Assembly: GCA_964230645.1 (NCBI GenBank)
Contig: CAXRHT010000003.1
Span: 459,108 to 523,107, forward strand
Length of the DNA: 64,000 nt
DNA from: Bdellovibrionales bacterium
Lineage (GTDB): Bacteria; Bdellovibrionota; Bdellovibrionia; Bdellovibrionales; JAGQZY01
Direction: 5' to 3'
Positions within the stretch are counted from its first letter, which is position 1. Every line of letters begins with the position of its first letter. The notes below the pieces were generated by a model. It saw only the letters and a list, made by a program, of their open reading frames with translations, was not told the origin of the DNA and did no database searches. Below, piece after piece: positions 32,303-62,913 of the stretch. The position numbers and the translations under genes are program-made.

Positions 32303-35300
32303 TTGATACTACGCTTAAGTTTGGCGAAAGCCCGTAATTTTATACTGAGCTGTTTAACTGTGCCGTTCATGGTGGCTTGTATTGCCGATATCAATGAACC
32401 GCTGAGCAGTAATAATGGGCTACTTGTATTTTCAACATCCACTTCTCCCAGTGATCAAATCAATCAACTCGATTTCGGCGCTACAGCTGCGGCTCCTGGC
32501 CGATCCTTTGAAACCATTTTTCTAATTAATACCGGTGGCAAAGCCATTGATAGTATTAAAACCACTTTAACCGAATCAGAATTTGTTTTTGAAGGTGGTA
32601 ATTATCCAGGGATCGGTGGTGATTGTGCAAAAGACCTTTCGCCTGGTGAAGCTTGCTCTATCGTTTTAAGGTTTAATCCTCCAACGACCACGTCGTACAC
32701 GGGTGAATTAAATATCACCTACGGTGACTCGGCTGAATTAGTGGCTGCACGCCTTGATCTTAAAGGGCAGGGGACTAATCCCGCTCTACTCACTGTGAGT
32801 GAAACCGATCCTTACGATTATGGACAACAGCCACTGAATACTTCTGGCGAGCATGTGTTTACCATTTCCAATGTTCCTGATGGAGCGATTGCAAAAAGAA
32901 TTACCGAAGTGGCACTGAACCCTCCCTATGAGCTTAAAGGCGGAGAGTGGCCAGGCCTTGGTGGAACCTGTACTGATAAACTTCTCCCAGGGAATACCTG
33001 TTCGTTTGTTGTGACATTCACACCAACTGTTGTGGGTCCGAATTTGGGTGAAATTAACGTTCAGTATGACAACGGAATAACACAAGTCAGTGCGGACCGT
33101 GATTTAACAGGTGTAGGAGTGATCCCAGCTAACCTCGTAATCGACATGGCTCCTGTTTATGATTTTGGAACTTTAATTATATCTCAAAATGCCACCTTTA
33201 CTTTTACGGTAACAAACGCGGGTGGCCTTGATGCTACCTCAATGACAGGGGCGGGATTGGTTTTTCCTTTTAACTTCACTGGCGGATCTTATCCGGGCGC
33301 TGGTGGAGATTGTGGTACCACCCTCACTCCTTCTGCGACTTGTACGATTGAAGTGCAGTTTGCTCCAATTAATCCAGGCTCTTTTACTAGCACACTTGAG
33401 ATTCCTTATAATAACGGCGCTGTTTTAGATACTGCCACTCGTGATATCCAAGGGGCGGCAGTGACCCCGGCTCTTCTTACCATCAGTGACGGACCGACTC
33501 TCGATTTTGGCGTCACCGCTATTGGAAGCTCGCTGACTCATGCTTTTACTGTGACTAACTCGGGTGGTTCACAAGCCACAGCCATTCTTGATACAGGTGC
33601 TTTAGCCGCACCCTTTGATTACTCCGGTGTGGGGTATCCTGGTATTGGAGGCGACTGTAACGTGACTCTTGCTCCGGGGGCAAGTTGTACACTAGTGCTT
33701 GAGTTTGCTCCAACAGTGGCCAACATCTATAACGATCAATTAGAAATTTCATATAATGATGGACTCAGTGGACAGCTCGCTCAAAGGGACATTCAGGGAA
33801 CAGGGGTGATTCCTGCTACCTTAACAATTACGGAAACGGATCCTTACAACTATGGGTCTATCCCTACGGGTGGATTTATTACCCATACTTTCACCGTTGC
33901 AAATACGGGTGGTTTTTCAGCTAGTAGTATAGCTGAAGTGGGGCTTGCGGCACCTTTCGAATTCTCTGGTGGAGCTTTTCCAGGAGCCGGCGGGGACTGC
34001 ACAGCGACTTTACTTCCTGGAGACTCTTGTACATTAGAAATTAACTTTTCACCCACAGTCACTGGATTACAACAAGATACGATCGCTCTGAATTACTTTG
34101 ATGGGGCTACCAACCAAACAGTGAATAGAGATGTTGAAGGCTCGGGTGTGACACCCGCTTCTTTGAGTATTAATGAAGCACCTCTTTTTGATTATGGGTC
34201 TCCTGTTTTAGGGTCACAAACCGACCATACCTTCAATGTTAGTAACACTGGTGGATTCGCCGCTTCTAGTATCGTTGGCGGAGGACTTCTTCCTCCTTAC
34301 GAATATAAAGACGGAAGTTATCCAGGAACGGGAGGAAGTTGTACTAATACAATTGCTGCCGGTTCTACTTGTTCGATTGTGGTGACTTATTCTCCGACCG
34401 TGGTGGGAGTTGATAATGATACTATCGAGATTGATTATTTTGACGGAGTGAACTCGCAAACCGCCACTCGCGATATAACTGGAACGGGTGTGGTTCCAGC
34501 CTTTCTGACTTTAACAGAAGCGCCACTTTATGATTACGGAACAAGAGCTGTGGGTTCAAGCAATCTTCATATTTTCACAGTCAATAACGTGGGGGGTGCT
34601 CCTGCGACAAGCCTTGCTGAAATTGGCCTAGCCGCTCCCTATCAGTTTGTTGGAAGCGCTTATCCAGGAACCGGTGGGGATTGTGGTACCACCCTCGGTG
34701 CTGGCGCAAGCTGTACTCTCTATATTGAGTTTGCACCCACTGTGATTGGAAATTACAACGATCAAATACAGCTTGATTATTTTGATGGTGCAGCTTTGCA
34801 ACAAGTCACTCGTGATGTAACGGGGAATGGAGCCGCTCCCGCGAGTCTTTCGATTTCAGAGGCACCGACTTATGATTTTGGAAATGTTGCAATTGGTGGG
34901 CAAGACACACACTCTTTGGTTATTACAAATAGTGGTGGAGTTCCCGCGGTTTCACTCTCTGGTTCCACACTGACGCTTCCCTTTGATTATGAAGGCAGTA
35001 CTTATCCTGGATTGAGTGGTGATTGTACTGCTACTTTGGCTCCGGGTGCCACCTGTAGTATTTCCCTAAGTTTTTCTCCGACGGCATTAACAACATCCAA
35101 TGACACTTTCACTTTGAGTTATAACGATGGTGTAGGTGGTCAAAGCGTTCCTCGCGATGTCACGGGCACGGGGGTGAACCCTGCGCAATTAGCGATCGAT
35201 CAGGGACCGACTTTTGATTACGGGACTCTAGCCACTGGAAGTGCCCAGGTAAATCTGTTTACAGTTTCAAACTCTGGTGATGTCACAGCCAATAATATAG

Positions 35301-38300
35301 CTGTCGTGAATCCTCTCGGTCTTCCTTTTCAGTATGAGGGGGGAACTTATCCAGGAACGTCAGGAAATTGTGGAACAAGTCTTGCCTCCGGTGCCACTTG
35401 TAGTATTGCCGTTGAATATGCACCTACGGCCACAGGCAGTCACTCGGATACGATCGATATTCAGTATGATAATGGTGCCATTGTTACAAATACGACAAGA
35501 GATGTGCAAGGGAATGGGGTTAATCCGGCACTACTAGTGATCGATCAGTCTCCTCTTTACAATTTTGGTTCCGTTCCAACAGGAGCCACTCGTACATTTA
35601 TTTTCACAATGACTAATACCGGAAGCTTTTTAGCCAGTGGGCTTTCAGGAGCGGGTCTAACTCCACCGTTCACCTATTCCGGTGGCTCCTTCCCTGGTAC
35701 TGGTGGGGATTGCGCGGCTACTTTGGCGGCGAGTAGTAGTTGTCAGATCGAAGTGCTTTATTCACCGACGAATGTTGCTACCCACACAGCGACTATGGAT
35801 GTGAACTATTTTGATGGAGCCAATAATCAAAATAGTCTGCGGGATTTACAAGGAACAGGAGTGGCTCCAGCACTCCTAGAAATTTCTAATGCTCCAAGCT
35901 TTAACTTTGGAACAGTAGCAACCGGTTCTATTAACACCCAAGTACTAACCGTGAGTAACTCTGGTGGGTTTCAAGCCACTGCGATTGCTGATAATCTGGG
36001 GCTCGCAGCTCCATTTAGTTTTTCAGGGGGAACATTCCCTGGAGTCGGTGGAGATTGTGCGGCCACACTTGCTGCTGGAAGTACATGTCTTATTGAAGTT
36101 AGTTATAACCCCGTTGCACCAGCTTCTGATAGCGACACCATCGATATTGCCTACAATAACGGAGTCTCTGCTCAAAACGCTCTAAGAGATTTATTAGGTG
36201 TGGCTGTGAACCCCGCCGTCATTGATATTACGGAAACAGATCCCTATGACTTCGGTACAATAGCGACAGGTGGAATTCGCACTCATATTTTTACATTATC
36301 AAATTCCGGTGGAATCACTGCTACGGGAGTAGCAGAAGTTGGACTGGCGGCTCCTTTTGCTTTTACGGGCGGAGCTTTTCCTGGAACCAACGGAGATTGT
36401 ACTAGTAGTATCGCCAACGGTGCTTCTTGTGATATCGAGATTGCCTACCAGCCGACTGTGACCGGGACGCAAACAGACTCAATTGAAATTCAGTACAATG
36501 ATGGCTCAGGAAGTGTAAGCTCACTAAGACAAATTCAAGGAACGGGTGCTGCCCCAGCTTCCATTACAATCACCGAAACCGATCCTTATGATTATGGAAC
36601 TTTGGCTCAAGGGGGCTCAGCCACTCATACCTTTACTCTTACCAACGCGGGTGGTGTTGATGCCACAGTGATGAGTGGTGGAGGATTAGGAGCTCCTTTT
36701 AGTTTCACTGGTGGTTCCTACCCAGGTGCCGGTGGTGATTGTGGAGCGACCCTTGTTCCCGCTGCAACTTGTTTGATCGAAGTGCAATTTGCACCGACCA
36801 CCGCTGCTGTTTTTAACGACACGATTGATATCAATTATTTTGATGGGGCTAACAACGTCACTTCCGCTCGTGATATCACGGGAACTGGTGCAGCTCCCGC
36901 TCTTCTAACGATCAGTGAATCCAATCCCTATAACTTTGGACTCATCGCCAATGGCGGAAGTGTCTCCCATAGTTTTACAATTTCAAATGCCGGTGGTGTT
37001 CCAGCGACGGCTGTTGCCGAGGTGGGCTTAAGTGCTCCGTTTAATTATTTAGGAGGAAGCTTCCCAGGAACCGGTGGTGATTGTGGTGCAACGATTGGAG
37101 TGGGTGCGAGTTGTACGATTCGCGTGGCCTTTCAACCAACAGCGACCGGGGTTTTCCCAGATACCATTGATTTTACCTATAACAATGGTTCTGCGGTGGT
37201 GAATTCCACACGCGATGTTCAGGGAACAGCGACCGCTCCTGCTAGTATAGCCATTAGTGAGACCGATCCTTATAATTACGGTACAAGAGCTGTCGGTTCT
37301 GTGACCTCTCATATTTTTAGTTTAACAAACTCCGGGGGTGTTTCTGCCACGGCGATTGCCGATGCTGGTGGACTTGCCGCTCCTTTTTCCTATGTGGGAG
37401 GAAGTTTTCCTGGAACAGGCGGGGACTGTGGAGCGACACTAGCCGCTCTAGCTAGCTGTAATATTGAAGTTATTTATAGTCCAACAGCCGCTGTTACAGA
37501 CACCGATACCATCGATGTTAATTATAATGATGGAACGGGTGCTACCAACACCACAAGAGATGTGACTGGAACAGGAGCTCTACCCGCCAACCTCTCAATC
37601 ACTGAAACCGATCCTTTTGATTTTGGCTCGGTCACCGTGGGCTCTAGTCAAACCCATATCTTTACCATTTCCAATGGTGGTGGTGTGGCTGCAACGACGA
37701 TCAGTGAAGTTGGTTTAGCGCCACCTTTTGCCTTTGCTGGTGGTGGAGGGTTTCCAGGAGCTGGTGGTACATGTACTGCGACCCTTGGTGCGAGTGCGTC
37801 TTGTGATGTGGTTGTTGAATTCACTCCAGCGGGTTCTGGATTTGTTTCCGATACGATCGATTTTAGCTATTTTGATGGAGTTAACACTCAAAATGTTACT
37901 CGAAATATTCAAGCCACAGGCCTTGTGCCAGCGACCTTAAGTATTTCAGAGCTTGATCCCTATGATTACGGAACAAGGCCCACAGGAAGCATCAATCAAC
38001 ATGTTTTTGTTGTTACCAACACTGGTGGAACTCAGGCTTCAGGAATGGCCGGTGCGGGACTCAATGCACCTTTCCGATTTGAGGGGGGCTCTTACCCTGG
38101 AACCTCTGGAAGTTGTGCTGCTACGTTGGCTGTTGGAGCCAGTTGTAATCTTGTTGTAGAATATGCTCCCGTGGCTGTGAGCCCTAGTGACACAGATACC
38201 ATCGACATGAACTACTTTGATGGAGCTAATTCTCAGGTCAGCTCAAGAGACCTTGTCGGAGTGGCTGTGACTCCAGCCCTACTCACTATTAGTGAATCCG

Positions 38301-41300
38301 ATCCTTATAGTTACGGAACACTAGCGACAGGTGCTTCTCGGGCCCATAGTTTTACAATATCAAATACGGGCGGAAGCCAGGCGACAGCGATTGCTGAGAG
38401 CACTGTAGCAGCGCCTTTCCGTTACACCGGAGCTGGAAATACTTTTCCAGGAGCTGCGGGTGATTGTGGCACGACTCTAGCCGCTGGTGCGACTTGTACG
38501 ATTGAAGTGGAGTATGCTCCCACAGTTGTGAATGCCAGTGACGCTGGAACGATTACTTTTGGTTACAACAATGGTGTTTCTGTACAAGGTGTGGCGAGGA
38601 CTCTCAGTGGTGTTGCAGTAACACCAGCGAGCATCACCATGGATCAAGGCGATCCCTACAATTATGGAACAGTGGCTCAGGGAGCCAGTCGCAATGTTGT
38701 TATCACCCTTACAAATGGTGGTGGATTTAATGCGACAAGCTTAACGGAAATCACTCTCGGAGGAGATTTTGATTTTACCGGTGCTGGCTTTCCGGGTACA
38801 GGTGGCAACTGTACAGCGACTTTAACAAGTGGTGCGACTTGCACAATTGAAGTGGCTTTTTCTCCTTCAAGCACAGGGGCATTGGCTGGAACCTTGAGCC
38901 TGCAATACAACAATGGGGTTTCCGTTGTTACGGAAACAAAAGCTTTGAGTGGAACCGGTGCTGCCCCCGCACTTATTACAATCAGTGGGACGGATCCCGT
39001 GGATTTTGGAACTGTCACCCAGGGCTCGAACACAACAATACTTTTAACAGTGAATAATACGGGAGCGGTGAATGCCACAGGAATCAGTGGTGGTGGACTT
39101 GCGGCTCCTTTTGGCTTTACCGGTGGAACCTATCCGGGCCTCGGTGGAACTTGTGGAGATCCCATTCTTCCCTCCACTCCTTGTAATATTGAAATTCAAT
39201 TCTCTCCCACAACGGCTGTGGTAAGTAATGGCCAAGTAGATATAAATTACAATAATGGTGTGGGACCACAAACCACCACAAGAACTCTTGTTGGTGAGGG
39301 TGTGGCGCCAGCCCTTCTCACCATCTCTGGTGTTGATCCTTATGATTTCGGAACGATCGCTAACGGGGGAGGGATAGCCTCCGTTGCTTTCACAATTAAT
39401 AATATCGGTTCTAGTAGTGCCACGGCAATCAATGAAACCACCCTTGGTGGTGACTTTGATTTCTATTTAGCGGGTTACCCTGGAAGCGGTGGAACTTGTG
39501 GAGCCAGTTTACCGGCGGGTGGAAGTTGTAATGTCGTTCTCGAATTTACACCGACAAGCCTTGGACCCCTCTCTTCTACTTTTACTCTACAATATAATGA
39601 TGGAGCGGCAGTACAAACGGAAAGTAAAGATCTGCAAGGTGTGGGTGGCGCGCCCGCTCTTCTCGATATAGCAAGCAGTGATCCTCATGATTTTGGAACT
39701 GCGGCTATTGGCTCGACCAATACGGTTATATTAACAATATCTAATGGTGGTGCTGTTTCTGCTACTGGCATGGCTGCTGTGGCGAGCTTAAGTCCTCCCT
39801 TTAATTACACAGGTGTTGGGTATCCTGGAACAAATGGAACTTGCGGGACCTCACTTGCGACAAGTGCCACATGTGATATTGAAGTTCAGTGGGTGCCAGC
39901 AGCACTTGGACCGCAAACCCAAAATATAAGCATTAACTACAATGATGGAACTGGAGCTACCAATTTCACCCACGGCGTTCAAGGAACAGGAGCGAATCCT
40001 GCGCAACTTGCTATTCAAGGCGTTGATCCGGCTGATTTCGGTAATGTAACTCAAGGTGATACTCAAACCCTGATTCTTACGGTGGAAAATACTGGAGATG
40101 TGAATGCCACTGGAATTACTGAGACTGGCTTAGCGGGAGACTACGCTTTTACAGCTCCGGGTACTTTCCCTGGGGGTGCTGGAACTTGCACAACAACGAT
40201 CACCAATGGAAGTACGTGTACGATCGAAGTGCAAGTGACTCCTTCGAGCACTGGAATAATTCCAGGAACAATCACCTTTGATTATAATAACGGTGCAAAC
40301 AACACATCCTACTCCCACGGGTTGACGACCAATGGGTTGGCTCCGGCCGTTCTTGCTATCACACCAGGGCCTGGAAACTATGATTTTGGTACAAGACCTG
40401 TAGGTTCTACGAACTCAAACACTTTCACGTTAACAAATAGTGGAGGAAGTGCGGCCACACTTATTGTGGGTGGCGGATTAAGCGCACCTTTTACCTACAG
40501 TGGCGGAAGTTTCCCTGGTGGAGGAACTTGTACAGGAACTCTTGCTTCTGGAAGTTCATGTACCTTTGTGGCTGACTATCTTCCGGTGGCTGCCAATGGT
40601 GCAGAGTCCGATACAATTACTATTGATTACAATGATGGCGCGGCCGCTCAACAGATTACTTTAGGCCTTGATGCTGTTTCGCAAACTCGTGCTACCCTCA
40701 CAATCAGTGAAAGTGACCCTTATAATTATGGAACTCTAGCCACTGGGGCTACAAGAGCTCACAGTTTTACGATTTCTAACACAGGTGAATTTCAAGCAGG
40801 AGCTATCACAGAAACCACAGTGGCGGCTCCTTTTAGATACACTGGAGCTGGCAACACCTATCCTGGAGCGGCGGGAGATTGTGGAGCAACCCTTGCTGGT
40901 GGCGCAACTTGTACGATTGAAGTGGAATACGCTCCTACATTAGTGAGTGCCGGAGATTCTGGGACTATTACTTTTGGGTACAATGACGGTGTTGCCGTTC
41001 AAAGTGTTGCGCGCACACTTAGTGGTGTTGCGGTCACACCCGCTAGTATTACCATGGATCAGGGCGACCCTTATAATTTCGGAACAGTGGCACAAGGTGC
41101 TTCTCGTAATGTATTGATCACTCTGACTAACGGAGGCGGATTTGGTGCAACCAGCATTACAGAGACCACTTTGGGTGGTGATTTTGATTTTACCGGCGCT
41201 GGTTTTCCTGGAACCGGTGGTAACTGTACGACTTCTTTATTAAGTGGTGCAAGTTGTACGATCGAAGTGCAATTTGCGCCAGCAAGTACGGGTGCTTTAG

Positions 41301-44300
41301 CTGGAACTTTATCAATACAATATAATAACGGTGTTACCACGGTGACAGAAACTAAAGCCCTGAGTGGATCAGGTGCTGCTCCTGCATTGATCACAATCAG
41401 TGGAACAGATCCTGTGGATCTTGGTAATGTAACCCAAGGTTCAAATTCTACGGTTATATTAACAGTCAACAACACCGGAGCGGTCAACGCTACGGGAATT
41501 AGTGGTGGAGGCCTTTCTGCTCCCTTTGGATTTACGGGTGGGTCTTATCCTGGAACTGGTGGAACTTGTGGAGATCCGATTCTCCCTTCCACCCCTTGTA
41601 CCATCGAATTACAATTCTCTCCTACGACGGCTGTTGTTAGTAACGGACAAGTCGATATTAACTATAACAACGGCGTTGGACCACAAACGACGACTAGAAC
41701 TCTCGTAGGTACCGGTGTGGCTCCAGCCCTTCTTACACTCTCTGGTGTTGATCCTTACGATTTTGGAACTCTTGCTAATGGCGGTGGAATTGCCGCGGTG
41801 ACAGTAACGGTTGATAACATTGGATCAAGCAGTGCAACTGCCATGAGTGAGACAACTCTTGGTGGAGATTTCGATTTTTATCTTTCCGGTTATCCAGGAA
41901 ATGGTGGAACTTGTGGAGCGAGCCTTCCTGCAGGATCGAACTGTACAGTGGTGTTGGAATTTACCCCTACAAGTCTTGGACCTCTCTCTTCTACGTTCAC
42001 TCTGCAATATAATGATGGTGCCGCGGTTCAGACAGAGAGCAAAGCTTTACAAGGTGTGGGTGGCGCGCCAGCGCTACTTGATATAGCCACCAGTGATCCT
42101 CATGACTTTGGAACCAGAGCGATTGGATCTACCAATACTGTTATTTTAACAGTAACCAATGGCGGAGCCGTGGCTGCTACCACAATCGCTGATGCAGCCA
42201 CACTCAGTCCTCCATTTAATTACACAGGGACGGGATATCCTGGAACCAATGGAACTTGTGGAGTGAGTTTAAATAGTGGAGCCAGTTGTGATCTTGAAGT
42301 GCAATGGGTTCCGGCTTCAACAGGTGTGCAGAATCAGAATATCACTCTCAATTATAATGACGGAACGGGAGCGACCAGTTTTGTTCACGGTCTGCAAGGA
42401 ACGGGAGCGAATCCAGCTCAGCTAGCCATTCAAGGAGTTGATCCAGCCGATTTTGGAAACGTCACTCAAGGGGATACTCAAATTCTTATTTTAACAGTTG
42501 AGAACACAGGCTCTGTTAATGCCACAGGCATCGCGGAAACAGGATTGGCCGGAGACTATGCTTTCACAGCTCCTGGTACTTTCCCAGGTGGTGCTGGAAC
42601 TTGTACAACAACCATAACCAATGGAAGTACTTGTACTATTGAAGTTCAAGTGACGCCTTCTAGTACTGGTATTATTCCAGGAACGATCACCTTTGATTAT
42701 AATAACGGCGCTAATAACACTTCTTACTCTCACGGTTTAACAACTAACGGTCTGGCACCTGCTGTTCTTGCCATTACGCCAGGGCCTGGCAATTATAATT
42801 TTGGAACAAGACCTGTTGGCTCAACAAACTCAAATACTTTTACCTTAACAAATAGTGGTGGAAGTGCCGCTTCATTAATTATAGGTGGAGGCTTAAGTGC
42901 TCCTTTTACCTATAGTGGTGGAAGTTTTCCCGGCGGAGGAACTTGTACAGGAACATTAGCTTCGGGAAGCTCATGTACCTTTATAGTTGATTATTTACCG
43001 ACTGTAGCTAATGGAGCAGAAACAGACACGATCACAGTGGATTACAATGACGGCGCGGCCGCTCAGCAAATTACTTTAGGACTTGATGCTGTTTCACAAA
43101 CTCGCGCCACACTCACAATCAGTGAAAGTGATCCTTACAATTACGGAACCTTGGCCACCGGAGCCACGAGAGCTCACAGTTTTACAATTTCAAATACTGG
43201 TGAATTTCAAGCCAGTGCCATTGGTGAAAGCACTGTCGCCGCTCCTTTTAGATACACAGGAGCCGGCAATATTTATCCTGGAGCGGCTGGAGATTGTGGC
43301 GCCACGCTTGCTGGTGGTGCGACATGTACCATTGAAGTGGAATACGCTCCAACACTAGTCAGTGCGGGAGATGCTGGAACAATTACTTTTGGATACAATG
43401 ATGGTGTCGCGGTTCAAAGTGTTGCGCGCACTCTCAGTGGAGTGGCTGTCACCCCTGCTAGTATTACAATGGATCAGGGAGACCCCTACAATTTCGGAAC
43501 GGTGGCACAAGGCGCTTCTCGCCCCGTTATAATTACGCTGACAAATGGTGGTGGCTTTGGTGCCACAAGCATTACCGAGACCACCCTTGGGGGTGACTTT
43601 GATTTTACAGGCGCTGGTTTCCCTGGAACGGGTGGAAATTGTACGGCTTCTTTACTAAGTGGTGCTAGTTGTACTATCGAAGTGGAATTTGCTCCAACGG
43701 TTACAGGAGCCTTGGCAGGCACTTTAACTGTTCAATATAACAATGGTGTTTCAACGGTAACAGAAACGAAAGCTTTAAGTGGTAATGGTGCCGCGCCGGC
43801 TCTTATCACGATTAGTGGTACAGACCCTGTCGATTTTGGAAGTGTCACTCAGGGCGCCAGCAACACCTTACTTCTAACAGTAAACAATACGGGCGCTGTC
43901 AATGCCACAGGAATTAGTGGCGGAGGACTGGCTGCTCCTTTTGGATTTACTGGAGGCTCTTATCCTGGAAGTGGTGGAACCTGTGGAGATCCCATTCTCC
44001 CATCCACTCCATGTACTATCGAATTACAATTTTCTCCCACAACGGCTGTTGTCAGTAACGGCCAAGTGGACATTAACTATAATAACGGTGTAGGACCGCA
44101 AACAACCACAAGAACTCTTGTGGGTACTGGTGTTGCGCCTGCTTTACTCACTTTCTCAGGTACTGATCCCTATGATTTTGGCACTATTGCCAACGGCGGT
44201 GGAATTGCTTCGGTGACAGTGACCGTTGATAATATTGGGGCCAGCAGTGCTACGGCTATGAATGAAACCACTCTTAGTGGTGATTTTGATTTTTATCTTT

Positions 44301-47300
44301 CTGGTTACCCAGGTAACGGTGGAACTTGTGGAGCAAGTCTTCCTGCGGGATCTAACTGTACGGTGGTTCTTGAATTTACACCCACAAGTTTAGGACCATT
44401 ATCCTCCACATTCACGATCCAATATAATGATGGTGCCGCCGTCCAAACCGAAGCCAAAGATTTACAAGGTGTGGGTGGAGCGCCAGCGCTACTTGATATC
44501 GCTACCAGTGATCCTCATAATTTTGGAACGCGTGCGATTGGCTCAAACAATACTGTGATTTTAACGGTGACTAACGGTGGTGCTGTGGCGGCAACCACAA
44601 TAGCCGATGGGCTTAGTCTCACTCCTCCTTTTGACTTTACGGGTGGAAGTTACCCTGGTTCGAATGGAACCTGTGGTGCTAGTCTCGCGACAGGCGCTAA
44701 TTGCGATATCGAGGTGCAATGGATTCCAGCGGCTACGGGCTTGCAGAGTCAAAACATTACATTAAATTACAATGACGGAACAGGAGCTGCGACATTCACT
44801 CATGGCTTACAGGGAACAGGAGCCAATCCGGCTCTTCTTTCCATTCAAGGAGCCGACCCAGCTGATTTTGGCAATGTCACACTAGCTGACACTCAAACAC
44901 TTCTGCTAACTGTTGAAAACACAGGTGGAGTGGCAGCCACTGCTGTTGTTGAGAGTGGACTGGCTGGGGATTATGCTTTTACTGCTCCAGGAACCTTTCC
45001 TGGTGGTGGAGGATCTTGTCCCACGACTATTAGTAGTGGCTCCACATGTACTATTGAAGTTCAGGTCACACCTTCTAGTACAGGCGTTATCTCTGGCAAC
45101 GTGACTCTTGATTACAACAATGGTGCAACCAATACGTCTTATACTCACGGGTTGACCACCAATGGGTTATCGCCAGCGACTCTTGCGATAACCCCCGGGC
45201 CTGCTAACTACGATTTTGGAACGCGTCCAATTAACTCTGTTAACACCAACACCTTTACACTCACCAATGGTGGTGGAAGTCCTGCCACAGGAATTGTGGG
45301 CGGGGGCCTTGCATCTCCTTTCGTATATAGTGGCGGAAGTTTTCCTGGTGGGGGCACCTGTACCGGAACTCTTGCTGCGGGAAGTTCTTGTACTTTTGTG
45401 GTGGATTACCTTCCAACAGTGGCCAATGGCGCAGAGACCGACACAATAACAATCGATTATAATGATGGAACTGTAGCCCAGCAAACAACTCTTGGTCTTG
45501 ATGCTGTTTCTCAAACGAGATCTTTACTTACAATTAGTGAAAGTAATCCCTATAACTACGGAACTCTTGCTACAGGTGCCACAAGAGCTAATACCTTTAC
45601 AATTACAAATACCGGAGAGTATCAGGCCACAGCAATATCTGAAACAACAATTGCCAATCCTTTCCGTTACACAGGAGCTGGAAATACTTTTCCTGGAGCA
45701 GCCGGTGATTGTGGTACGACACTCAATGGAGGTGCCAGCTGTACGATTGAGGTAGAATATGCTCCGACAGTCGTGAGTGGTGCTGATTCTGGAACTATTA
45801 CTTTTGGTTACAATGATGGTGTCGCGGTACAGAGTGTGGCGCGCACTCTTAGTGGTGTGGCTGTCACTCCTGCTAGTATTACAATGAATCAAGGTGACCC
45901 CTATAACTTCGGGACGGTGGCACAGGGTGCCTCTCGTAATGTTCTGATCACTCTTACAAATGGTGGTGGTCACGGAGCCTCTGCCATTACCGAAACGACT
46001 CTTGGTGGAGATTTCGATTTCAGTGGAGCTGGTTTTCCAGGAACCGGTGGAAATTGTACAGCCACTTTATTGAGTGGTGCGAGCTGTAATATCGAAGTGG
46101 CTTTTGCCCCGGGTAGCACTGGAGCTTTAGCCGGTACTCTTAGCATTCAATACAATAACGGTGTTTCCGTCGTCACAGAAACAAAAGCTCTGAACGGAAC
46201 TGGGGCCTCTCCAGCACTTATTACCATTAGTGGCACAGACCCGGTGGATTTTGGAAATGTCACTCAAGGCTCCAGTACGACGACTCTTTTAACTGTTAAC
46301 AACACAGGCTCAGTCAATGCCACTGGAATTAGTGGGGGGGGACTTGGTGCTCCTTTTAGTTTCACCGGAGGATCCTACCCTGGACTAGGTGGAGATTGTG
46401 GTGATCCTATTTTGCCAGCCACTCCATGTACAATTGAAGTGCGTTTTGCACCGACGGCAGCTGTGGTGAGTAACTCCCAAGTGGATATCAATTACCACAA
46501 TGGTGTGAGTCCTCAAACGACAACAAGAACTCTTGTCGGTACAGGAATCGCTCCGGCTCTTCTAACTTTTTCAGGAGTAGACCCTTATGATTTCGGAACC
46601 ATTGCCAATGGTGGTGGGATTGCGTCGGTCACAGTCACTGTCGACAATATTGGTTCAAGTAGTGCGACAGGCATTAATGAAACAACACTCGGTGGTGACT
46701 TTGATTTTTATCTATCAGGGTTTCCTGGTAACGGTGGAACTTGTGGGGCGAGCCTTCCCGCCGGATCGAACTGTACGGTGGTGCTTGAATTTACACCAAC
46801 AAGTTTAGGTCCACTAGCTTCGACTTTTACTCTACAATATAATGATGGTGCGGCTGTTCAAACCGAAGCTAAAGATCTACAAGGTGTCGGTGGAGCACCA
46901 GCGCTCCTTGATATCGCCACCAGTGATCCGCATGATTTCGGTACCAGGGCTATAGGTTCTACCAATGTCGTGGTTTTAACCATTACCAATGGTGGTGCTG
47001 TGGCTGCGACAGCGATTGCTGATGCTGCCACTTTAACTTCTCCTTTCAGTTATACGGGTGCGGGTTATCCTGGAAGCAACGGAACTTGTGGAGCCTCTCT
47101 TGCTAGCGGTGCTTCTTGTGATATTGAAGTAAGCTGGGTGCCGGCAGCCACCGGATTACAGAATCAAACAGTCACCCTTAACTATAATGATGGCTCTGGT
47201 GCCACTTCATTTACTCACGGTTTACAAGGAACAGGGGCTAACCCCGCTCTACTCTCTATTCAAGGGGCTGATCCCGCCGATTTTGGAAATGTCACTCTGG

Positions 47301-50300
47301 CTGACACACAATCTCTTCTTCTTACTGTGGAAAACACTGGGGATGTTGCAGCGACCTCGGTTTCTGAAAGTGCATTGGCTGGAGACTATGCTTTCACGGC
47401 GCCTGGAACTTTCCCTGGAGGGGGAGGTTCATGTACAGCGACTATCGGTGGAGGAGCCACATGTACCATTGAAGTACAAGTGACCCCCAGCAGTACAGGG
47501 GTCATTTCCGGTAATGTGACTCTTGATTATAACAATGGCGCTACCAACACCTCTTACACTCATGGGTTGACCACCAACGGTTTATCACCGGCAACTCTTG
47601 CGATAACACCAGGTCCGGCTAACTACGATTTTGGAACGCGTCCAATTAACTCTGTTAACACCAACACCTTTACACTCACCAATGGTGGAGGAAGTCCTGC
47701 CACAGGAATTGTCGGTGGTGGTCTTGCATCTCCGTTTGTATACAGCGGCGGAAGTTTTCCAGGTGGCGGAACTTGTACAGGAACTCTTGCAGCCGGAAGC
47801 TCTTGTACTTTTGTAGTTGATTATCTTCCGACCGTCGCTAATGGCGCAGAAACTGATACGATTACGATTGATTACAACGATGGAACGGTCGCACAGCAGA
47901 CAACTTTAGGGCTTGATGCTGTTTCTCAAACAAGATCTTTACTTACAATTAGCGAGAGCAGTCCTTACAATTACGGAACTCTTGCGACGGGTGCCACGAG
48001 AGCTCACACATTTACCATCGCTAATACGGGAGAGTATCAGGCTACAGCAATTTCTGAAACAACGGTCACTAACCCTTTCCGTTACACAGGAGCCGGAAAC
48101 ACTTATCCCGGAGCGGCTGGAGATTGTGGGGCGACTCTCAACGGAGGCGCAAGCTGTACGATTGAAGTTGAATACGCTCCGACTGTAGTGAGTGGAGCTG
48201 ATTCGGGAACTATTACTTTTGGTTACAATGATGGTGTCGCGGTACAAAGTGTGGCGCGCACTCTCAGTGGTGTGGCGGTGACACCAGCGAGTATTACCAT
48301 GAATCAAGCCGATCCTTACAATTTTGGAACAGTTGCTCAAGGTGCTTCCCGCAATGTATTGATCACTTTGACAAATGGTGGTGGTCATAGTGCGACCAGT
48401 CTTACTGAAATCACACTTGGTGGAGATTTTGACTTTACCGGGGCTGGATTTCCTGGAACGGGTGGAAACTGTACCGCTTCTCTTTTAAGTGGAGCGAGCT
48501 GTAATATCGAAGTCACTTTTGCACCAGGAAGTACAGGGGCTTTAGCGGGCACTTTAACTTTACAATATAATAATGGAGTGACCACAGTCACAGAAACGAA
48601 AGATCTCAGTGGTGCGGGTGCCGCTCCGGCATTGATCACAATTAGTGGTACGGATCCAGTGGATTTCGGAAATGTGACTCAAGGATCAAATAACACACTT
48701 CTGTTGACTGTTAACAACACAGGGGCTGTCAATGCCACAGGAATTAGCGGTGGTGGATTGAGTGCCCCATTTGGTTTTACCGGAGGAGCTTATCCAGGAT
48801 CAGCGGGAACCTGTGGTGATCCCATTCTACCATCAACGCCTTGTACAATTGAAGTGCGCTTTTCTCCAACAACCGCAGTCGTAAGCAACGGGCAAGTTGA
48901 TATTAACTACAATAACGGCGTTGGACCACAGACGACCACAAGAACTCTAGTAGGAACAGGAATCGCTCCAGCCTTACTGACTTTCACAGGGGCTGACCCC
49001 TACGATTTTGGAACTGTGGCTAATGGCGGAGGCCTTGCCTCTGTGACTGTTACAGTCAATAACGTGGGTTCTAGTAGTGCAACCGCTATGAATGAAACCA
49101 CACTCGGAGGTGATTTTGATTTCTACTTAACAAGTTACCCCGGAAACGGTGGAACTTGTGGAGCGAGTCTCCCAGCTGGCGGAAGTTGTGATGTTGTGCT
49201 TGAGTTCACACCAACAAGCCTTGGGCCTCTAGCCTCAACTTTTACCATCCAGTATAATGACGGGGCCGCAGTACAGACAGAGGCCAAAGCTCTTCAAGGT
49301 GTGGGTGGTGCTCCCGCTTTACTGGATATTGCTACCAGTGATCCTCATAATTTTGGAACAAGAGCCATTGGCTCCAATAACACTGTTATACTTACGATTA
49401 CAAACGGCGGAGCCGTGGCGGCCACAGGTATTGCAGACGCAGCCACACTTAGCGCTCCTTTTGATTACACAGGAACAGGTTATCCTGGAACCAATGGAGA
49501 CTGTGGAGCGAGTTTAGCAAGCTCTGCGAGTTGTGATATTGAAGTGCAATGGATCCCATCATCCACTGGTTTGCAAACTCAAGACATTACTTTGAATTAC
49601 AATAATGGAACAGGAGCCACTGCTTTTGTTCATGGTCTACAGGGAACCGGTGCTAACCCCGCTCTCCTTTCCATTCAAGGAGCCGATCCGGCGGACTTCG
49701 GAAATGTCACGCAAGGAAACCCTCGCGTTCTTCTTTTAACAGTTGAAAACACAGGAGATGTTAACGCTACAGGCATTACCGAATCAGGACTTGCTGGGGA
49801 TTATGCCTTCACTGCTCCTGGAACCTTCCCTGGTGGTGGTGGAAATTGTACAACTACGATTAGTAGTGGTGGAACTTGTACTATCGAAGTGCGCGTGATT
49901 CCTAGTAGTACTGGAGCCGTCACCGGTAATGTAACGCTCAATTATAACAATGGTGCGACGAACACTTCCTATACCCATGGTCTAACAACAAATGCTATTA
50001 GCCCAGCGATCTTAGCGATCACTCCAGGACCGGCGAACTACGACTATGGAACAAGACCTATTAATTCAACCAATACAAATACCTTCACTCTTTCAAACAG
50101 TGGGGGAAGCCCTGCTACAAGTATTGTCGGTGGTGGTTTAGCCTCTCCTTTCATTTATAGTGGTGGGAGTTTTCCTGGTGGAGGAACCTGTACGGGAACT
50201 CTGGCGGCGGGTAGCTCTTGTACTTTCATAGTCGATTACTTACCGACAACAGCCAACGGAGCGGAAACCGATACTATCACCATCGACTTCAATGATGGTG

Positions 50301-53300
50301 TGGCCTTACAGCAAACCACTCTAGGGCTAGATGCTGTTTCACAAACAAGAGCGAACTTAACAATTTCAGAAAGCAATCCTTATGGATACGGCACTCTAGC
50401 GACAGGAGCCACAAGGGCTCATACGTTTACAATTTCCAACACTGGTGAGTTCCAAGCCACAGCTATAGCAGAAACCACAGTAGCCGCTCCTTTTAGATAC
50501 ACTGGAGCAGGAAACGTTTTTCCTGGGGCCGCTGGCGATTGTGGGACCTCTTTAAATGGAGGAGCCACTTGTATTATCGAAGTGGAGTACGCTCCAACTG
50601 TTGCTCCATCCGCTGATTCAGGTACTATTACATTTGGCTACAATGATGGCGTAGCCGTTCAAAGTGTTGCCAGAACAGTTGCTGGTACCGCTGTAACACC
50701 TGCGTCGATCACTATGAATCAAGGCGACCCCTACAACTTTGGAACTATTGCACAGGGATCTTCTACAAATGTTGTTATAACTCTAACAAATGGTGGGGGA
50801 GCTACGGCTACTTCTGTGAGTGAAACCACCCTGGGTGGCGATTTCCGATTCACTGGTGCCGGTAACACATTCCCTGGTGGCGCTGGAAACTGTACGGCCA
50901 CTTTAACAAGTGGAGCTAGTTGTACCATTGAAGTCGAGTTCGCACCGAGTAGCACAGGGGCCTTGGCCGGAACCTTAACGATTCAATATGGGAATGGAGT
51001 CACCACTGTTACGGAAACAAAAGCTCTCTCAGGAACGGGGGCCGCTCCAGCGCTTATTACCATAAGCGGTTCTGATCCTGTGGATTTGGGCAGTGTCACT
51101 CAAGGCGCAAGTACGACCACATTATTGACAGTTAATAATACGGGAGCTGTGAACGCGACCGGAATTAGTGGTGGTGGTTTAGCAGCCCCGTTTGGATTTG
51201 TAGGTGGATCTTATCCTGGAACAGGTGGAAGTTGTGGTGACCCCATTCTTCCGTCCACCCCTTGTACAATTGAAATTCAATTCTCTCCAACTGCGGCTAC
51301 TGTGAGTAACGGTCAGGTCGACATTAACTATAATAACGGAGTAACTCCGCAAACGACTACGAGAACTCTTGTCGGAACAGGTGTTGCCCCGGCGCAGTTA
51401 ACAATCACTGGGGCTGATCCCTATGATTTTGGAACTATTGCTAGTGGCGGTGGAGTGCAGTCTGTAACTTTCACAGTGCAAAACGTTGGTGCTAGTAGTG
51501 CAACTGCAATTACTGAGACCACATTAGCCGGTGATTTCGATTTTTACTTAACCACCTTCCCTGGAACGGGGGGAACTTGTGGAGCCAGTCTTGCTGCTGG
51601 TGCTAGTTGTGATGTGGTGTTAGAGTTTACTCCAACAGCCCTTGGGCCTTTAGCTGAAACCTTTACCCTTCAGTACAATGATGGCGCGGCCACTCAAAGT
51701 ATCAATAAAGATTTACAAGGTGTGGGTGGATCACCGGCTCTTCTTGATATCGCTACCAGTGATCCGCATGATTTTGGTACACGTGCTATTGGTTCAACCA
51801 ACACTGTTATCTTGACGGTTACAAACGGTGGTTCTGTTGCGGCCACAGGAATGGCTGATGGAGCCACCTTAAGTTCACCTTTTGCTTTCACCGGGGCAGG
51901 GTATCCAGGAACCAACGGAGATTGTGGAGCTAGCCTGGCCAGTGGAGCTTCCTGTGATGTGGAAGTGCAATGGGTGCCTGCGGGAACAGGTTTGCAAGCT
52001 CAAACAATGACCATTAATTATAATGACGGTACAGGCGCGACAAACTTCACTCATGGTCTTCAGGGGACGGGTGCAAACCCTGCCTTACTTTCTATACAAG
52101 GGGCGGATCCTGTTAACTTTGGTAGTGTCACTCAAGGGGACACTCAAAGCCTGATCTTAACTGTTGAGAATACCGGTGATGTGTCGGCCACCACAATCAC
52201 AGAAAGTGGTCTTTCAGGTGATTACTCTTTCACGGCTCCAGGAACTTTCCCTGGAGGAGCTGGAAACTGTACGGCCACTCTAACGAGTGGAAGCACTTGT
52301 ACCATTGAAGTTCAGGTGAGTCCGACGAGTACAGGTGCGATTTCTGGCACAATCACATTAAATTATTACAACGGGGCGAACAATTCCTCTTACAACCATG
52401 GCACGTTAACCAATGGTATTGCGCCAGCCGTGCTTGCAATCACTCCGGGACCAGGTAATTACAATTACGGTACACGTCCGATCAATTCGACAAACACCAA
52501 CACCTTCACACTGACAAATAGTGGAGGGAGTCCTGCTACCGGAATAGTGGGTGGTGGACTTGTCGCTCCTTTTGTTCACAGCGGGGGAAGTTTCCCTGGT
52601 GGTGGAACTTGTACAGGAACTTTGGCTTCAGGAAGTTCTTGTACCTTCGTTGTCGATTATTTACCGACAGTGGCCAACGGAGCTGAGACCGATACAATCA
52701 CAATTGATTACAATGACGGAGCTGTTGTCCAGCAAGCCACTCTGGGACTTGATGGTGTTTCTCAAACAAGAGCGAACTTAACAATTAGTGAAACCGATCC
52801 GTACAACTTTGGCGTGCTCGCTAACGGTGCCACTCGCTCTCATATATTTACAATAGCAAATACTGGTGAATTTCAGGCCACTGCTATTAGTGAAAGTACA
52901 CTTGTGGCTCCTTTCCGTTTTACCGGGGCTGGTAATACCTTTCCGGGTGCCGGCGGAGACTGTGGAGCTCTGTTAGCTGGTGGAGCTAGTTGTAGCATTG
53001 AAGTGGAATATGCTCCTTCCGCAGCTCCTGCAGCTGATAGTGGAACAATCACACTTGGCTACAATGATGGTGTTGCTGTTCAAAGTGTTGCAAGGACTCT
53101 TTCTGGAACGGCAGTGACTCCCGCTAATATTACAATGGATCAAGCCGATCCTTATAATTTTGGAACACTCGCCCAAGGCGCTAGTCGAAACGTTTTAATT
53201 ACTTTAAGTAATGGCGGTGGCCATGGTGCGACTGCACTGAGTGAAACCACACTTTCTGGTGATTTTGATTTTACGGGAGCGGGCTTCCCCGGGGCCAATG

Positions 53301-56300
53301 GTACTTGTACAGGAACATTAGCCAGTGGTTCAAGCTGTACTGTGGAAGTGGCCTTTTCTCCAACAGCGACAGGGGCTCTTTCTTCGACTCTGACTTTTCA
53401 ATATAACAATGGGGCTTCCACTGTTACCGAGACAAAAGTTCTTAACGGTACCGGAGCGACTCCGGCTCTTGTGACAATCAGCGGTTCTGACCCTGTGGAT
53501 TTTGGAAGTGTGACTCAAGGATCAAGTACAAGTTTAACTCTCACTCTGAATAACACTGGAACGGTCAATGCTACAGGAATCAGTGGTGGTGGATTAACCG
53601 CTCCTTTTGCTTTTACTGGAGGATCCTATCCTGGATCGGCCGGAACTTGTGGTGATCCCATTTTACCGGCCACTCCTTGTACCATTGAGTTACAATTTTC
53701 CCCAACATCTCCTGTAGTTAGCACTTCGCAAGTGGATATCAACTACAACAATGGGGCGGGCGCTCAAACGAGTACCCGTACATTAACAGGTGAAGGTATC
53801 GCTCCAGCTCTACTAACAATGAGTTTAGGCGATCCTTACGATTTTGGAACGGTAGCCAATGGCGGTGGTATCCGAAGTCAAAGTTTTACAATCACGAATA
53901 TTGGGTCAAGTTCTGCCACAGGTATGAATGAAATTGGTATGGGAGGAGACTTTGACTTCTACCTCACCACTTATCCAGGAAACGGTGGAAACTGTGGGGC
54001 CTCACTGCCTCCAGCTGGAACTTGTACGGTCGTTTTAGAGTTTACACCAACAAGTCTTGGACCTGCTGCCAGTACTTTTGATTTACAGTACAACGATGGT
54101 GTTAATACACAAAATTTAACTAAAGATGTGCAAGGTGTGGGTGGGAATCCTGCGGTTCTCTCTATTTCTGATGGACCGACTTACAATTACCTAAGTAAAG
54201 CGATTGGGTCATCAACTTCTCACTTGTTTACTGTCACAAATACCGGGGCGGTGACGGCGATCTCTATGGCTGACGCCGGTACGCTCAATCCTCCATTTGT
54301 CTTTACCGGTAGTGGATATCCTGGGGACAACGGAGACTGTGGAGCGACTTTGGCTTCGAGTGCGACCTGTACTATTGAGGTGGCTTATGAACCGACAAGC
54401 CCAGGGTCTTCTACAGAAACTGTCACCTTAAGTTACAATGATTCCATCAACAATCAGACAGCTTCAGTGGGTGTCACTGGAACAGCGACGACAGCTGCCA
54501 ACTTGAGTATTACTGGTGTAGACCCTGTCGATTTTGGCAGTGTCACTCAAGGGGCCTCCAGCAATGTGGTGTTTACTCTAAATAACTCCGGAGGAGTGGC
54601 CGCCACAGCAATCACTGAAGTTGGTATGAGTCTACCGTTCCGCTTTCGTGGAGGAAGTTATCCGGGAACCTCTGGAACATGTGGTACCAGTTTAAGTTCC
54701 GGTCTTTCTTGTGATATTGATGTCGAATTTTTACCAACGACATCTGGCTTTGTTTCACAGACAATAGATATCAATTATTTCAACGGACAGTCCACTCAGA
54801 GTGTGACTCGCGACGTGCAAGGAACAGGACTCGATCCCGCTATACTTGGTATTTCTGAAGTGAATCCTTATAGTTTCGGCACAAGACCTATTGGCTCTTC
54901 AACACTTCACGTGTTTACAGTCACTAACACAGGTGGTTCTGAGGCCACCGGTATGGCCGGTGGACCACTGTCATCTCCTTACCGATTTGAGGGCGGAACT
55001 TATCCTGGAACTTCAGGAGATTGTGGAACCAATTTAATTGCTGCAGCTTCCTGTACTATTGCTGTTGAGTTTTTACCAGTAACGACAAATCCAAGTTACA
55101 CCGACACAATTACGATCAACTATACGGATGGAGCCAGCGGACAAGTGTCCACTCGCGACATCGTCGGTGTTGCGGTGAATCCGGCGCAGTTAAGTATTTC
55201 TGAATCGGATCCTTACAATTTTGGCTCTCATCCCACCGGAGACAATGTTACTCATATATTTACTATCTCTAATACAGGTGGAGTGACAGCAACGGGAATT
55301 GTAGAGAATGGTCTTGCCGCTCCTTTTACTTATGTTGGTGGAACTTATCCAGGGACTGGTGGAGACTGTAGTCCGAACCTCGCTGCTGGAGACTCTTGTA
55401 CAATAGAAGTTCAGTACACTCCTGCGACTGTGGCTACTCATCCTGATACAATCAGTTTTGATTACAATAATGGTGTGAATCCTCGGACGGAAACTCGGGA
55501 TGTGACTGGAACAGGTGTAACACCAGCCATTATCGATATCTCTGAATCCGACCCATATGACTTTGGATCGGTCGCCGAGATGAGCTCTAGAACCCACTTT
55601 TTCACATTAACCAATAACGGAAGTGTCAACGCCACATCCATTACAGAATCAACTTTATCAGCCCCTTACCAGTTTGCTGGAGGCGGCGGATTCCCTGGTG
55701 CTGGTGGAGACTGTACGGCGACTCTGGCACCAGCTGCGAGCTGTACTATTGAAGTCGAGTTTGCTCCCACTACAACAGGTGTGTTCAATGACTCAATCAC
55801 TATCCAATATAACAATGGAGCCAGTACCACATCTCGAATAAGAACGATCACTGGGACTGGTACATCAACGGCTAACCTTGTGATTACGGAGTCACCTTCT
55901 TACGACTTTGGAAACGTCACAAGTGGTGGCGGAACAAGAACTCATATCTTCTCGATCACTAACACAGGTGGAGTGGACGCCACGGGCGTGCTCGGTGGTG
56001 GATTGTCTTCACCATTTAGTTATACAGGAGGTTCGTTCCCTGGTAGCGGTGGAAACTGTGCCGATCCAATCCCTGCTTCAAGCACTTGTCAGATTGAAGT
56101 GAGTTTTACACCTGTGGCTAATGTTCTGACTTCCGATTCCATTGAAGTAGACTACAATGATGGTGTGGCTCCAAGACAAGTGACAAGACTTGTGCAAGGA
56201 ACAGGTGTGGCTCCGGCTCTATTGACGATCTCTGAATCCGATCCTTATAGTTACGGCATCGTACCGATTTCTGGTGGTTTTAGAGATCATCTCTTCACTG

Positions 56301-61737: not shown

Positions 61738-62913
61738 ATGACCTTAACAAATCTCTTAAAAATAATATTTCTGCTTCTACTAGTCAGTTGCTCTTGGTTT
61801 CAGTCAAAACCAAGCCCACAAAATAAAAATCAGCCCAAAATGGTTAAGGCTAAAGAGGAGTGGGGTGAGAAACCTCTTTTCGAATTGAAAGAACTGCGAG
61901 AAGACCTTCTTGCAAAATCGGGTCCCTTCGAATTGAGTAGGAAAGAAATCGAGCAGGACACTTACCTTATTGACCTGCAAAAACAACACAGAAAAGCTCT
62001 TGAGAGACAAAAAAGAGGAGAGCTCAGCGAAAAGCATTATTTGCCAGCTTCTTTAGAGTCCGAAATTTTTCGGAGAAAACTCTTTCTAATTGATCGAAAA
62101 ATTAAAAACAAAGCTCTTGTTGCCGAAGCGAAAAAAGTAGGGATGCCTCTAAGAGAATTCACTCAAAAGTACGTTTTTGTAAAAGTTCAGGAACAAGTCA
62201 GTGACACTCTCATTGAGAATTACAAGAACAGTCATAGTGTCCCTAATGTCACAAATCCCAATGAATGGATACGACAGCAAATCGTTGAAGACAACAAACA
62301 GCGCTCACAAGATTATTTTCTCGAAAAATTTGTGCTTAAGCTCCCTATTGAAGTGAATCTTAAAGCACCTAGTTTTCCTTTGGATGTGAAAACCGAATGG
62401 GTTCCAAGTGAGGGACCTAAAAACTCAAGTCTCCCGGTGCATCTATTTGCCGACTCCATTAGCTCCCCTAATATTAAAGCCACAAAAGCTTTGCTTGATG
62501 TGGCTTCTCGTTTTGAAAATCTTTATGTGGGAATTCATCCCATCATCAATGCGAAAGAGCCTTTCCGCTACATGGGAGCTATGATCCGATTTTGTGTCAA
62601 CGATACAAGTCCCAACGTTTATTTTGAATTTTTAGAAAAGTCTTTAGGAAATCACAAACAGGAAACGGAATCAGTTCTTCTCAATTTAGCCGATGAGATG
62701 GGCCTGCCAAGAAATGAAATTTTCGATTGTCTCAGAGAACAAAAATTCAAAGATGTTCTAGCTTATCATAGTGAGTTCAACCAGTATCTTGGGATTCAAG
62801 CCGGACCGATTCTTTACGTCGATGGGGAGATCCTGACCGGAGCTTTCGGGGAAAAGCAAATTGAGGCTATTTTTTGTCGCAAACTCAATTTGAACTGTTC
62901 AGCCATGTGGTAA
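61738..62913 (+). CDS. DsbA/thioredoxin-fold lipoprotein lacking the CxxC active site
   Basis: Lipobox LVSC, helical N-domain, then 'PSEGPKNSSLPVHLFADSISSPN' at the position of the DsbA-family 'P..G...A.VTIVEFSDFQCPFC', and 'GIQAGPILYVDG' at the position of 'GV.GTP.ffING'. Confidence 0.72.
   Translation: MTLTNLLKIIFLLLLVSCSWFQSKPSPQNKNQPKMVKAKEEWGEKPLFELKELREDLLAKSGPFELSRKEIEQDTYLIDLQKQHRKALERQKRGELSEKHYLPASLESEIFRRKLFLIDRKIKNKALVAEAKKVGMPLREFTQKYVFVKVQEQVSDTLIENYKNSHSVPNVTNPNEWIRQQIVEDNKQRSQDYFLEKFVLKLPIEVNLKAPSFPLDVKTEWVPSEGPKNSSLPVHLFADSISSPNIKATKALLDVASRFENLYVGIHPIINAKEPFRYMGAMIRFCVNDTSPNVYFEFLEKSLGNHKQETESVLLNLADEMGLPRNEIFDCLREQKFKDVLAYHSEFNQYLGIQAGPILYVDGEILTGAFGEKQIEAIFCRKLNLNCSAMW

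Follow-up and report, generated by a model that had tools for sequence, protein, structure and literature searches.

A seven-domain super-repeat conserved in the stalk of giant predicted lipoproteins from Bdellovibrionales

Why would a giant bacterial protein built from tandem immunoglobulin (Ig)-like domains repeat those domains in sets of seven? The question is raised by a 64,000-nucleotide (nt) stretch of a Bdellovibrionales genome (contig CAXRHT010000003.1, positions 459,108 to 523,107; hereafter the window), whose host is probably a marine predatory bacterium. On the plus strand, to which all window coordinates below refer, an open reading frame (ORF) of 9,628 codons (32303–61189) encodes a 9,628-amino-acid (aa) protein composed of a signal peptide ending in a lipobox, 78 Ig-like domains and a C-terminal head of ~626 aa. 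An initial annotation of the window, made from the sequence alone, had likened part of this domain array to titin. Our analysis confirms the seven-domain super-repeat, finds it in a larger part of the protein than first described and recovers the same architecture in relatives, which allows its origin to be weighed.

The super-repeat is clearest in the protein's central part. A hidden Markov model (HMM) built from the protein's own repeats resolved 78 contiguous domains of 112–117 aa (~115 aa) each, from residue 48 to residue 9002. Domains 18 to 63 (d18–63) read (ABCDEFG)x6 + ABCD, and the seven type-specific motifs noted in the initial annotation each recur 6–7 times at exact unit spacing. 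Six complete A–G units (38273–52768; copies starting at 38273, 40688, 43103, 45518, 47933 and 50348) share 80–88% amino acid and 71–77% nucleotide identity, and are followed by the A, B, C and D domains of a seventh (d60–63; 52769–54148), which are 72–78% identical to the core copies. The period given in the initial annotation (2,415 nt for five intervals, 2,421 nt for the sixth) agrees with these unit starts, which are spaced by 805, 805, 805, 805, 805 and 807 aa, and the limits of the region (38279–54154 as first given, 38273–54148 here) differ by no more than 6 nt. The 2-aa insertion behind the 807-aa unit sits in the B domain of copy 6. Autocorrelation shows the corresponding maxima at 805, 1610 and 2415 aa in the protein and at 2415, 4830 and 7245 nt in the DNA.

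The seven types are cleanly separated. Within d18–63, identity ranges from 0.63 to 1.00 between domains of the same type (mean 0.82) and from 0.32 to 0.54 between domains of different types (mean 0.41), with no overlap. Neighbouring domains (lag 1) share a mean identity of 0.42 and at most 0.56. A per-domain tree, which the initial annotation had proposed as a check, gives the same picture: in a maximum-likelihood tree of all 78 domains, domains cluster by type A–G, and every type forms one clade with a support of 99–100 in the Shimodaira–Hasegawa-like approximate likelihood ratio test (SH-aLRT). Type labels change six times on this tree, which is the minimum, versus 31.9 times in shuffles, none of which (0 of 200) was as low. 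The type-by-type identity matrix reveals no sub-structure inside the unit, such as a titin-like 3+4 division, except for a B–D identity of 0.50. Tandem Repeats Finder gave no output on the window, because the copies are too diverged in DNA; the periodicity is seen only in the protein and by autocorrelation.

Does the period end at the borders of this block? Type HMMs were trained on arrays of six proteins whose domains had been labelled by phase, and were then applied to domains left out of training. Across the N-terminal domains of seven proteins (the giant ORF and the six relatives described below), d4 reads A, d5 B, d7 D, d9 F and d10 G, and d11–17 read A–G, so that 12 of 14 positions are in phase (chance, 1/7 each). 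On the other side of the block, d64–66 of the giant ORF read E, F and G, and in d67–73 the series runs A B C D E (B/F) G. These outer units match the core with an in-phase identity of 0.45–0.52, compared with an out-of-phase baseline of 0.414 ± 0.019, and d65 and d66 find their best matches in d16 and d17, at identities of 0.59 and 0.62. Because the N-terminal and C-terminal units are both in phase, the stalk from d4 to d73 comprises ten in-phase units, six and a half of them young and in the middle, the old ones on the flanks.

The layout of the protein follows from these assignments. Domains 1–3 (32444–33466) precede the periodic part. Domains 4–17 (33467–38272) form two old units, d4–10 reading A B. 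D. F G and d11–17 reading A–G. Beyond the young domains, d64–66 (54149–55180) are the old-lineage E, F and G that complete unit 7, d67–73 (55181–57592) are old unit 8, and d74–78 (57593–59308) are tail repeats without clear phase. The earlier view that no period exists among the 17 N-terminal repeats or the C-terminal ones is thus wrong, as d4–17 and d64–73 keep both order and phase. The description of d64–66 as decayed E/F/G was right about their identity, by position and by HMM, but these domains are copies of the older lineage rather than decayed members of the young core. The young block itself spans 46 domains (6 x 7 + 4), from an A to a D, which places its recombination breakpoints within units, at the D/E junction instead of the A/G boundary.

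Related genomes carry proteins of the same build. One unit, used as a query against 31 related genomes, recovered six further giants. Hereafter the giant ORF of the window is called G000w. Its paralog in the same genome, G000p (C2:614096–642652, minus strand), has 9,519 aa and 76 domains; G008 (11,203 aa) and G003 (10,329 aa) belong to other species of the same genus; and G017, G016a and G016b are three genes from two other genera of the family. All seven giants show identity maxima at domain lags 7 and 14, have units of 798–807 aa and place type A at domain 18. In a 340-domain tree of six proteins, the label "position modulo 7" changes 16 times (minimum 6; mean of shuffles 230), and D and E each form one clade. 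Domains 1–17 are one-to-one positional orthologs among G000w, G008 and G000p. A database protein, P0002 (7,382 aa), also maps cyclically onto A–G, with lag-7 and lag-14 maxima. Conservation of order, phase and unit length extends to the paralog and to giants from at least three genera.

The types themselves are less sharply drawn in these relatives. Outside G000w they are only weakly distinct, with a same-type identity of 0.53–0.62 versus a different-type identity of 0.43–0.51, and type F of G000w matches the sixth domain elsewhere at 0.41, no closer than unrelated types do. In the paralog G000p, autocorrelation at 14 domains (1,603 aa) exceeds that at 7 (801 aa), a hint of a higher order of two units. 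Among these proteins, the C-terminal heads seem to have been swapped: the N-terminal domains of G008 are nearest to those of G003 (0.65–0.86) and its head (L013:3–2606) is of the type found at 59309–61186 in the window, and the head of G003 (L014) is of the type found in the paralog near C2 614096.

Further afield, the annotation of one distant giant homolog names it a choice-of-anchor D protein from a Bdellovibrionaceae bacterium. Other giant lipoproteins with choice-of-anchor D domains (P0001–P0015) have 5.5–7.9 thousand aa, many with RCC1 domains, and show higher-order lags of their own: 7 domains in P0003, P0004 and P0008, 3, 10 and 13 in P0001 and P0015, 4 in P0005, P0009 and P0010, and 10 in P0007 and P0011. 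The lag-7 pattern of P0003, P0004 and P0008 could not be mapped onto A–G.

How old are the copies? Core copies of G000w share amino acid identities of 0.72–0.88 and DNA identities of 0.66–0.77. The proportion of synonymous differences between them (pS) is 0.64–0.74, which is saturation, and the ratio of nonsynonymous to synonymous change (dN/dS) is 0.05–0.12. The core copies are therefore old, near synonymous saturation and under strong purifying selection. The G domains d38 and d45 illustrate this at its extreme: they are 100% identical in protein over 115 residues, 86% identical in DNA and 60% identical at third positions. Where residues are identical between copies, the same codon is used at a frequency of 0.43–0.50, compared with 0.37–0.38 expected from random draws. 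Exact DNA matches between copies are mostly 15–29 nt long, so frequent RecA-type slippage is not expected. The longest match, and the sole long one, is a 71-nt repeat with copies at 45203–45273 and 47618–47688, in d38 and d45.

Short-read data bear on the integrity of the array. Logan contigs from four marine-metagenome runs, all from one study and seen as contigs, reach up to 17 kb and cover the array with 0–1 differences. They represent one allele. These contigs break only at the 71-nt repeat, where depth doubles, which suggests that the repeat is a local gene-conversion patch. Among read joints we found none that skips a multiple of 2,415 nt; all joints have sides of 20–30 nt at 90% likeness and were treated as cross-matches to repeats or to other organisms.

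Comparing arrays shows how they change in length. Domains 48–65 of G000p correspond to d55–72 of G003, a shift of exactly one unit between arrays of 76 and 83 domains. G017 and G016a (82 and 68 domains) are offset by -7 and then by -14 domains. All seven domain counts (78, 92, 76, 83, 82, 68 and 75) fit 3 + 7n + a tail of 2–5, with n = 9–12. The initial annotation had raised the possibility of length differences between strains in whole super-repeats. Between species this holds, in steps of 7 or 14 domains, but short-term variation among strains is unlikely given copies at 66–77% DNA identity and one allele in four samples.

The same comparison dates the array. In G000p, G003, G017 and G016a, same-type identity is 0.58–0.62 within a protein and 0.46–0.62 between proteins, and copies of proteins other than G000w interleave on the tree. 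Since identity within proteins is no higher than between them, and copies interleave, a multi-unit array predates the lineages of these four proteins. The core copies of G000w, on the other hand, are monophyletic in every type (mean same-type identity 0.82): this core is a lineage-specific re-expansion from one unit, after which the total still stands at ten units.

What kind of domain is being repeated? The repeats belong to the choice-of-anchor D family (NF012200; 311 and 273 bits against a cut-off of 45, in 9 and 7 stretches) and match the HYDIN/VesB/CFA65 Ig family (PF22544; 178 and 152 bits, cut-off 25.5), which is the ASH domain. All domains keep a pair of invariant cysteines, in alignment columns 63 and 73, together with N31, G33, P57, G58, G61 and G98, and the paired cysteines are likely to form disulfides. 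An AlphaFold2 (AF2) model of one unit, based on an alignment of 42 units, has a mean predicted local distance difference test score (pLDDT) of 91.2 and consists of seven eight-stranded beta-sandwiches. Its predicted template modelling score (pTM) is 0.41, so the arrangement of the domains relative to one another is not predicted. Foldseek matched the modelled unit best to ASH arrays of the ciliary central apparatus (PDB 7sqc, 9ijj and 7som; E-values of 6e-36 to 1e-28). Titin I65–I70 ranked 17th at 9% identity, as a generic Ig array only. Positions that distinguish the types fall in alignment columns 16–21, 35, 42, 84 and 87, and the strongest, column 113, lies in the linker. All domains are acidic, and in G000w charge varies by type (D, -8.3; F, -7.7; A–C, -4 to -5), a periodic pattern that is not conserved in the relatives.

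We favour, with a probability of roughly 0.6, a reading in which the periodicity results from block duplication and in-register recombination of the seven-domain unit and is a by-product of history and mechanics, not a ruler. An ancestral block of seven ASH-type Ig domains would have been duplicated in tandem, and the array would since have gained, lost and homogenised units as domains of the same type underwent unequal recombination in register, or gene conversion. Such in-register recombination would keep order, phase and the seven-domain quantum in place without selection on the period. Duplication of a block rather than of single domains would be tolerated, and perhaps favoured, because similar domains then stay seven apart and neighbours remain ~42% identical. 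The array would serve as a long, acidic, probably disulfide-stapled spacer, estimated at ~0.3 µm (78 domains x ~4 nm), and this spacer would hold the C-terminal head away from the predicted lipid-anchored N-terminus. Multi-domain duplication units and expansion in mid-array are common in domain repeats, and nebulin expands by seven (PMC1553488). Adjacent domains of large multidomain proteins usually share less than 50% identity, a feature proposed to limit misfolding (PMC8201768; PMC4660218). Several points weigh against this reading. Many bacterial adhesins tolerate identical neighbouring domains, and misfolding avoidance is thus not universal (PMC8201768). No single-domain, phase-breaking indel was seen in any of the seven arrays, over a time span that saturates synonymous sites several times, and unit length stays within ~4 aa; this could reflect selection on the unit. 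The unit total remains at 9–12 even in the re-expanded lineage, and this hints at selection on stalk length. Most type-specific columns, when placed by secondary structure, would map to the C-terminal pole, on the side of the following domain, an arrangement that would fit junction-specific geometry.

These points lead to the leading alternative, which takes up the ~30-nm structural period (for example a kink or periodic binding sites) suggested in the initial annotation: the unit would be a structural ruler or periodic module whose types are kept for junction geometry or partner binding, with an axial period of ~28–30 nm and a length selected in quanta. The conservation of order, phase and unit length across paralogs and genera would suit such a ruler, as would the low dN/dS (0.05–0.12, with one G pair identical in protein at 86% DNA identity), the concentration of type-specific positions at the C-terminal pole and linker, and the confinement of unit number to 9–12. 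We nevertheless regard it as unlikely: conservation of phase is predicted by in-register recombination alone, types are weakly distinct outside G000w (0.53–0.62 vs 0.43–0.51), its sixth type is unlike the sixth domain elsewhere (0.41), the charge pattern is not conserved, the AF2 inter-domain arrangement is not confident (pTM 0.41) and no periodic partner is known. Somewhat less likely again is a fully selected module, with a fixed geometry at each junction and an axial or superhelical repeat of ~28–30 nm, in which 9–12 quanta would set the reach of a prey- or surface-binding head in a predator. Both are far ahead of a Periscope-type adhesin, a recent and recombination-prone expansion whose copy number would tune reach from strain to strain. 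Whole-unit differences between species are in its favour, and the 71-nt exact match, together with a local third-position identity of 0.60, indicates some gene conversion between copies 3 and 4; but Tandem Repeats Finder came back empty, copies share 66–77% of their DNA with synonymous sites saturated, exact matches are mostly 15–29 nt, and one allele is shared by four samples, without any whole-unit joint, which contradicts the idea for the short term and makes it very improbable. The divergence of synonymous sites could in turn be read as active codon scrambling, favoured by selection because it would suppress recombination and so keep a required length stable, and high protein identity beside near-random third positions, as in d38 and d45 (identical protein at 86% DNA identity), would be expected under it. 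We find this just as hard to credit and reject it: same-codon use at identical residues (0.43–0.50) lies above, not below, random expectation (0.37–0.38), a pattern that old age and purifying selection predict. Giant repetitive genes are often misassembled, and collapsed or chimerically expanded repeats would be an artefact; here the copies differ at 23–34% of bases so that reads place uniquely, independent contigs from four runs (up to 17 kb) match with 0–1 differences, the 28.9-kb frame is intact and six other genes have homologous architectures, leaving an assembly error the least probable account of all.

The ends of the protein bear on where the spacer would act. The signal peptide (32303–32380) ends in a putative lipobox (..PFMVAC, Cys26), read from the sequence as a motif only, and homologs of the giant ORF carry LVSC, IASC, LTAC or LTGC at the corresponding position. 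With the anchor predicted from this motif, the array would combine an anchor and a tandem-repeat stalk as in a fibrillar adhesin. The C-terminal head (59309–61186; ~626 aa) is non-repetitive and has weak Big_13-like and Rha78A-N-like Ig matches, while its last ~206 aa match no known family. Neither the head nor a small ORF downstream has a relative in PDB or NCBIfam, and the head used as a query against the genome contigs retrieved none. In Pfam and NCBIfam scans the C-terminal region yielded no RTX repeats, and none of its matches is a signal family of type I secretion systems (T1SS). The genome has a G+C content (GC) of 42.9%, the giant gene one of 48% but of only 34% at third codon positions; its Gly, Ala, Thr, Ser and Pro composition raises GC at the first two codon positions.

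Two genes follow the giant ORF, one encoding a DsbA-like protein of thioredoxin fold (61738–62913) and one a DUF3575-like small beta-barrel (63094–63621). Both giant paralogs are flanked by such genes (27–43% identity by tblastn), with homologs near the paralog at C2:606634–607518, C2:610921–611814 and C2:643567–644115: the DsbA-like homologs are located downstream of the paralogous giant gene, and the DUF3575-like homolog adjoins it. The pair may form a dedicated folding or anchoring module for the giant protein, which would fit its 156 conserved cysteines and folding outside the cytoplasm. A neighbouring aminotransferase has its best named relatives in metagenome-assembled genomes of Bdellovibrionaceae and Bdellovibrio, at 48–50%.

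Higher-order domain repeats are textbook knowledge for muscle proteins and barely described in bacteria; our full-text literature search turned up no publication on giant choice-of-anchor D proteins, and none on super-repeats of bacterial adhesins. The family described here offers a clean natural system, with ancient, positionally orthologous arrays and one array re-expanded from a single unit, that lets the mechanics of recombination be separated from selection against misfolding or for geometry. It also demonstrates that stability and short-read assembly are both possible for a repetitive 29-kb gene because its copies have diverged at synonymous sites, which matters for the annotation of giant genes in metagenomes. 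Should the unit turn out to be a structural quantum, this would make it a molecular ruler of bacterial origin, convergent with titin and nebulin.

How does this stalk compare with known repeat proteins? Length-variable fibrillar adhesins such as the Periscope proteins (SasG, Rib, Sgo_0707) likewise have a long surface stalk of tandem Ig-like domains and a distal non-repeat region, but in them near-identical DNA repeats drive length variation and neighbours are identical (PMC8201768), whereas here neighbours are ~42% identical and copies share 66–77% of their DNA. Giant T1SS/RTX adhesins (MpIBP, SiiE, LapA) are also megadalton proteins with tens of Ig-like extender domains and a presumed C-terminal ligand-binding region. 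The giants described here differ from them in their N-terminal lipobox, their choice-of-anchor D/ASH family and their paired cysteines in place of calcium clamps. By fold, the closest counterparts are the ASH arrays of HYDIN, CFAP65 and CFAP74, which provide the best structural matches of the AF2 unit and share the Pfam family PF22544, but are eukaryotic, intracellular and microtubule-associated, with a sequence identity of 13–17%. We know of no reported 7-domain periodicity in those arrays.

In architecture, the nearest parallels are the muscle proteins. The titin A-band (7-domain D-zone, 11-domain C-zone) and the 7-module super-repeats of nebulin are likewise built from ordered domain types in tandem, and the likeness to titin drawn in the initial annotation is formally borne out: distinct types follow one another in a fixed order, and domains at equivalent positions resemble each other more than they do their neighbours. 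The period of titin matches the 43-nm myosin repeat. Unlike titin and nebulin, the giants are bacterial and extracytoplasmic with a predicted lipid anchor, and no periodic filament partner is known for them; in place of titin's mixture of Ig and fibronectin type III (FnIII) domains they use a single ASH-type Ig family, for which homology to titin or nebulin modules was not found. As in titin and nebulin, copies are old and individually conserved, and younger copies lie in mid-array (PMC1553488). The maxima at domain lags 7 and 14 and the growth in mid-array also agree with the multi-domain duplication units surveyed by Bjorklund, Ekman and Elofsson (2006; PMC1553488). Those repeats are mostly eukaryotic, whereas here unit, phase and length (3 + 7n + tail) are conserved across bacterial paralogs and genera. 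The giant lipoprotein stalk is a real bacterial counterpart of the super-repeat architecture of titin and nebulin.

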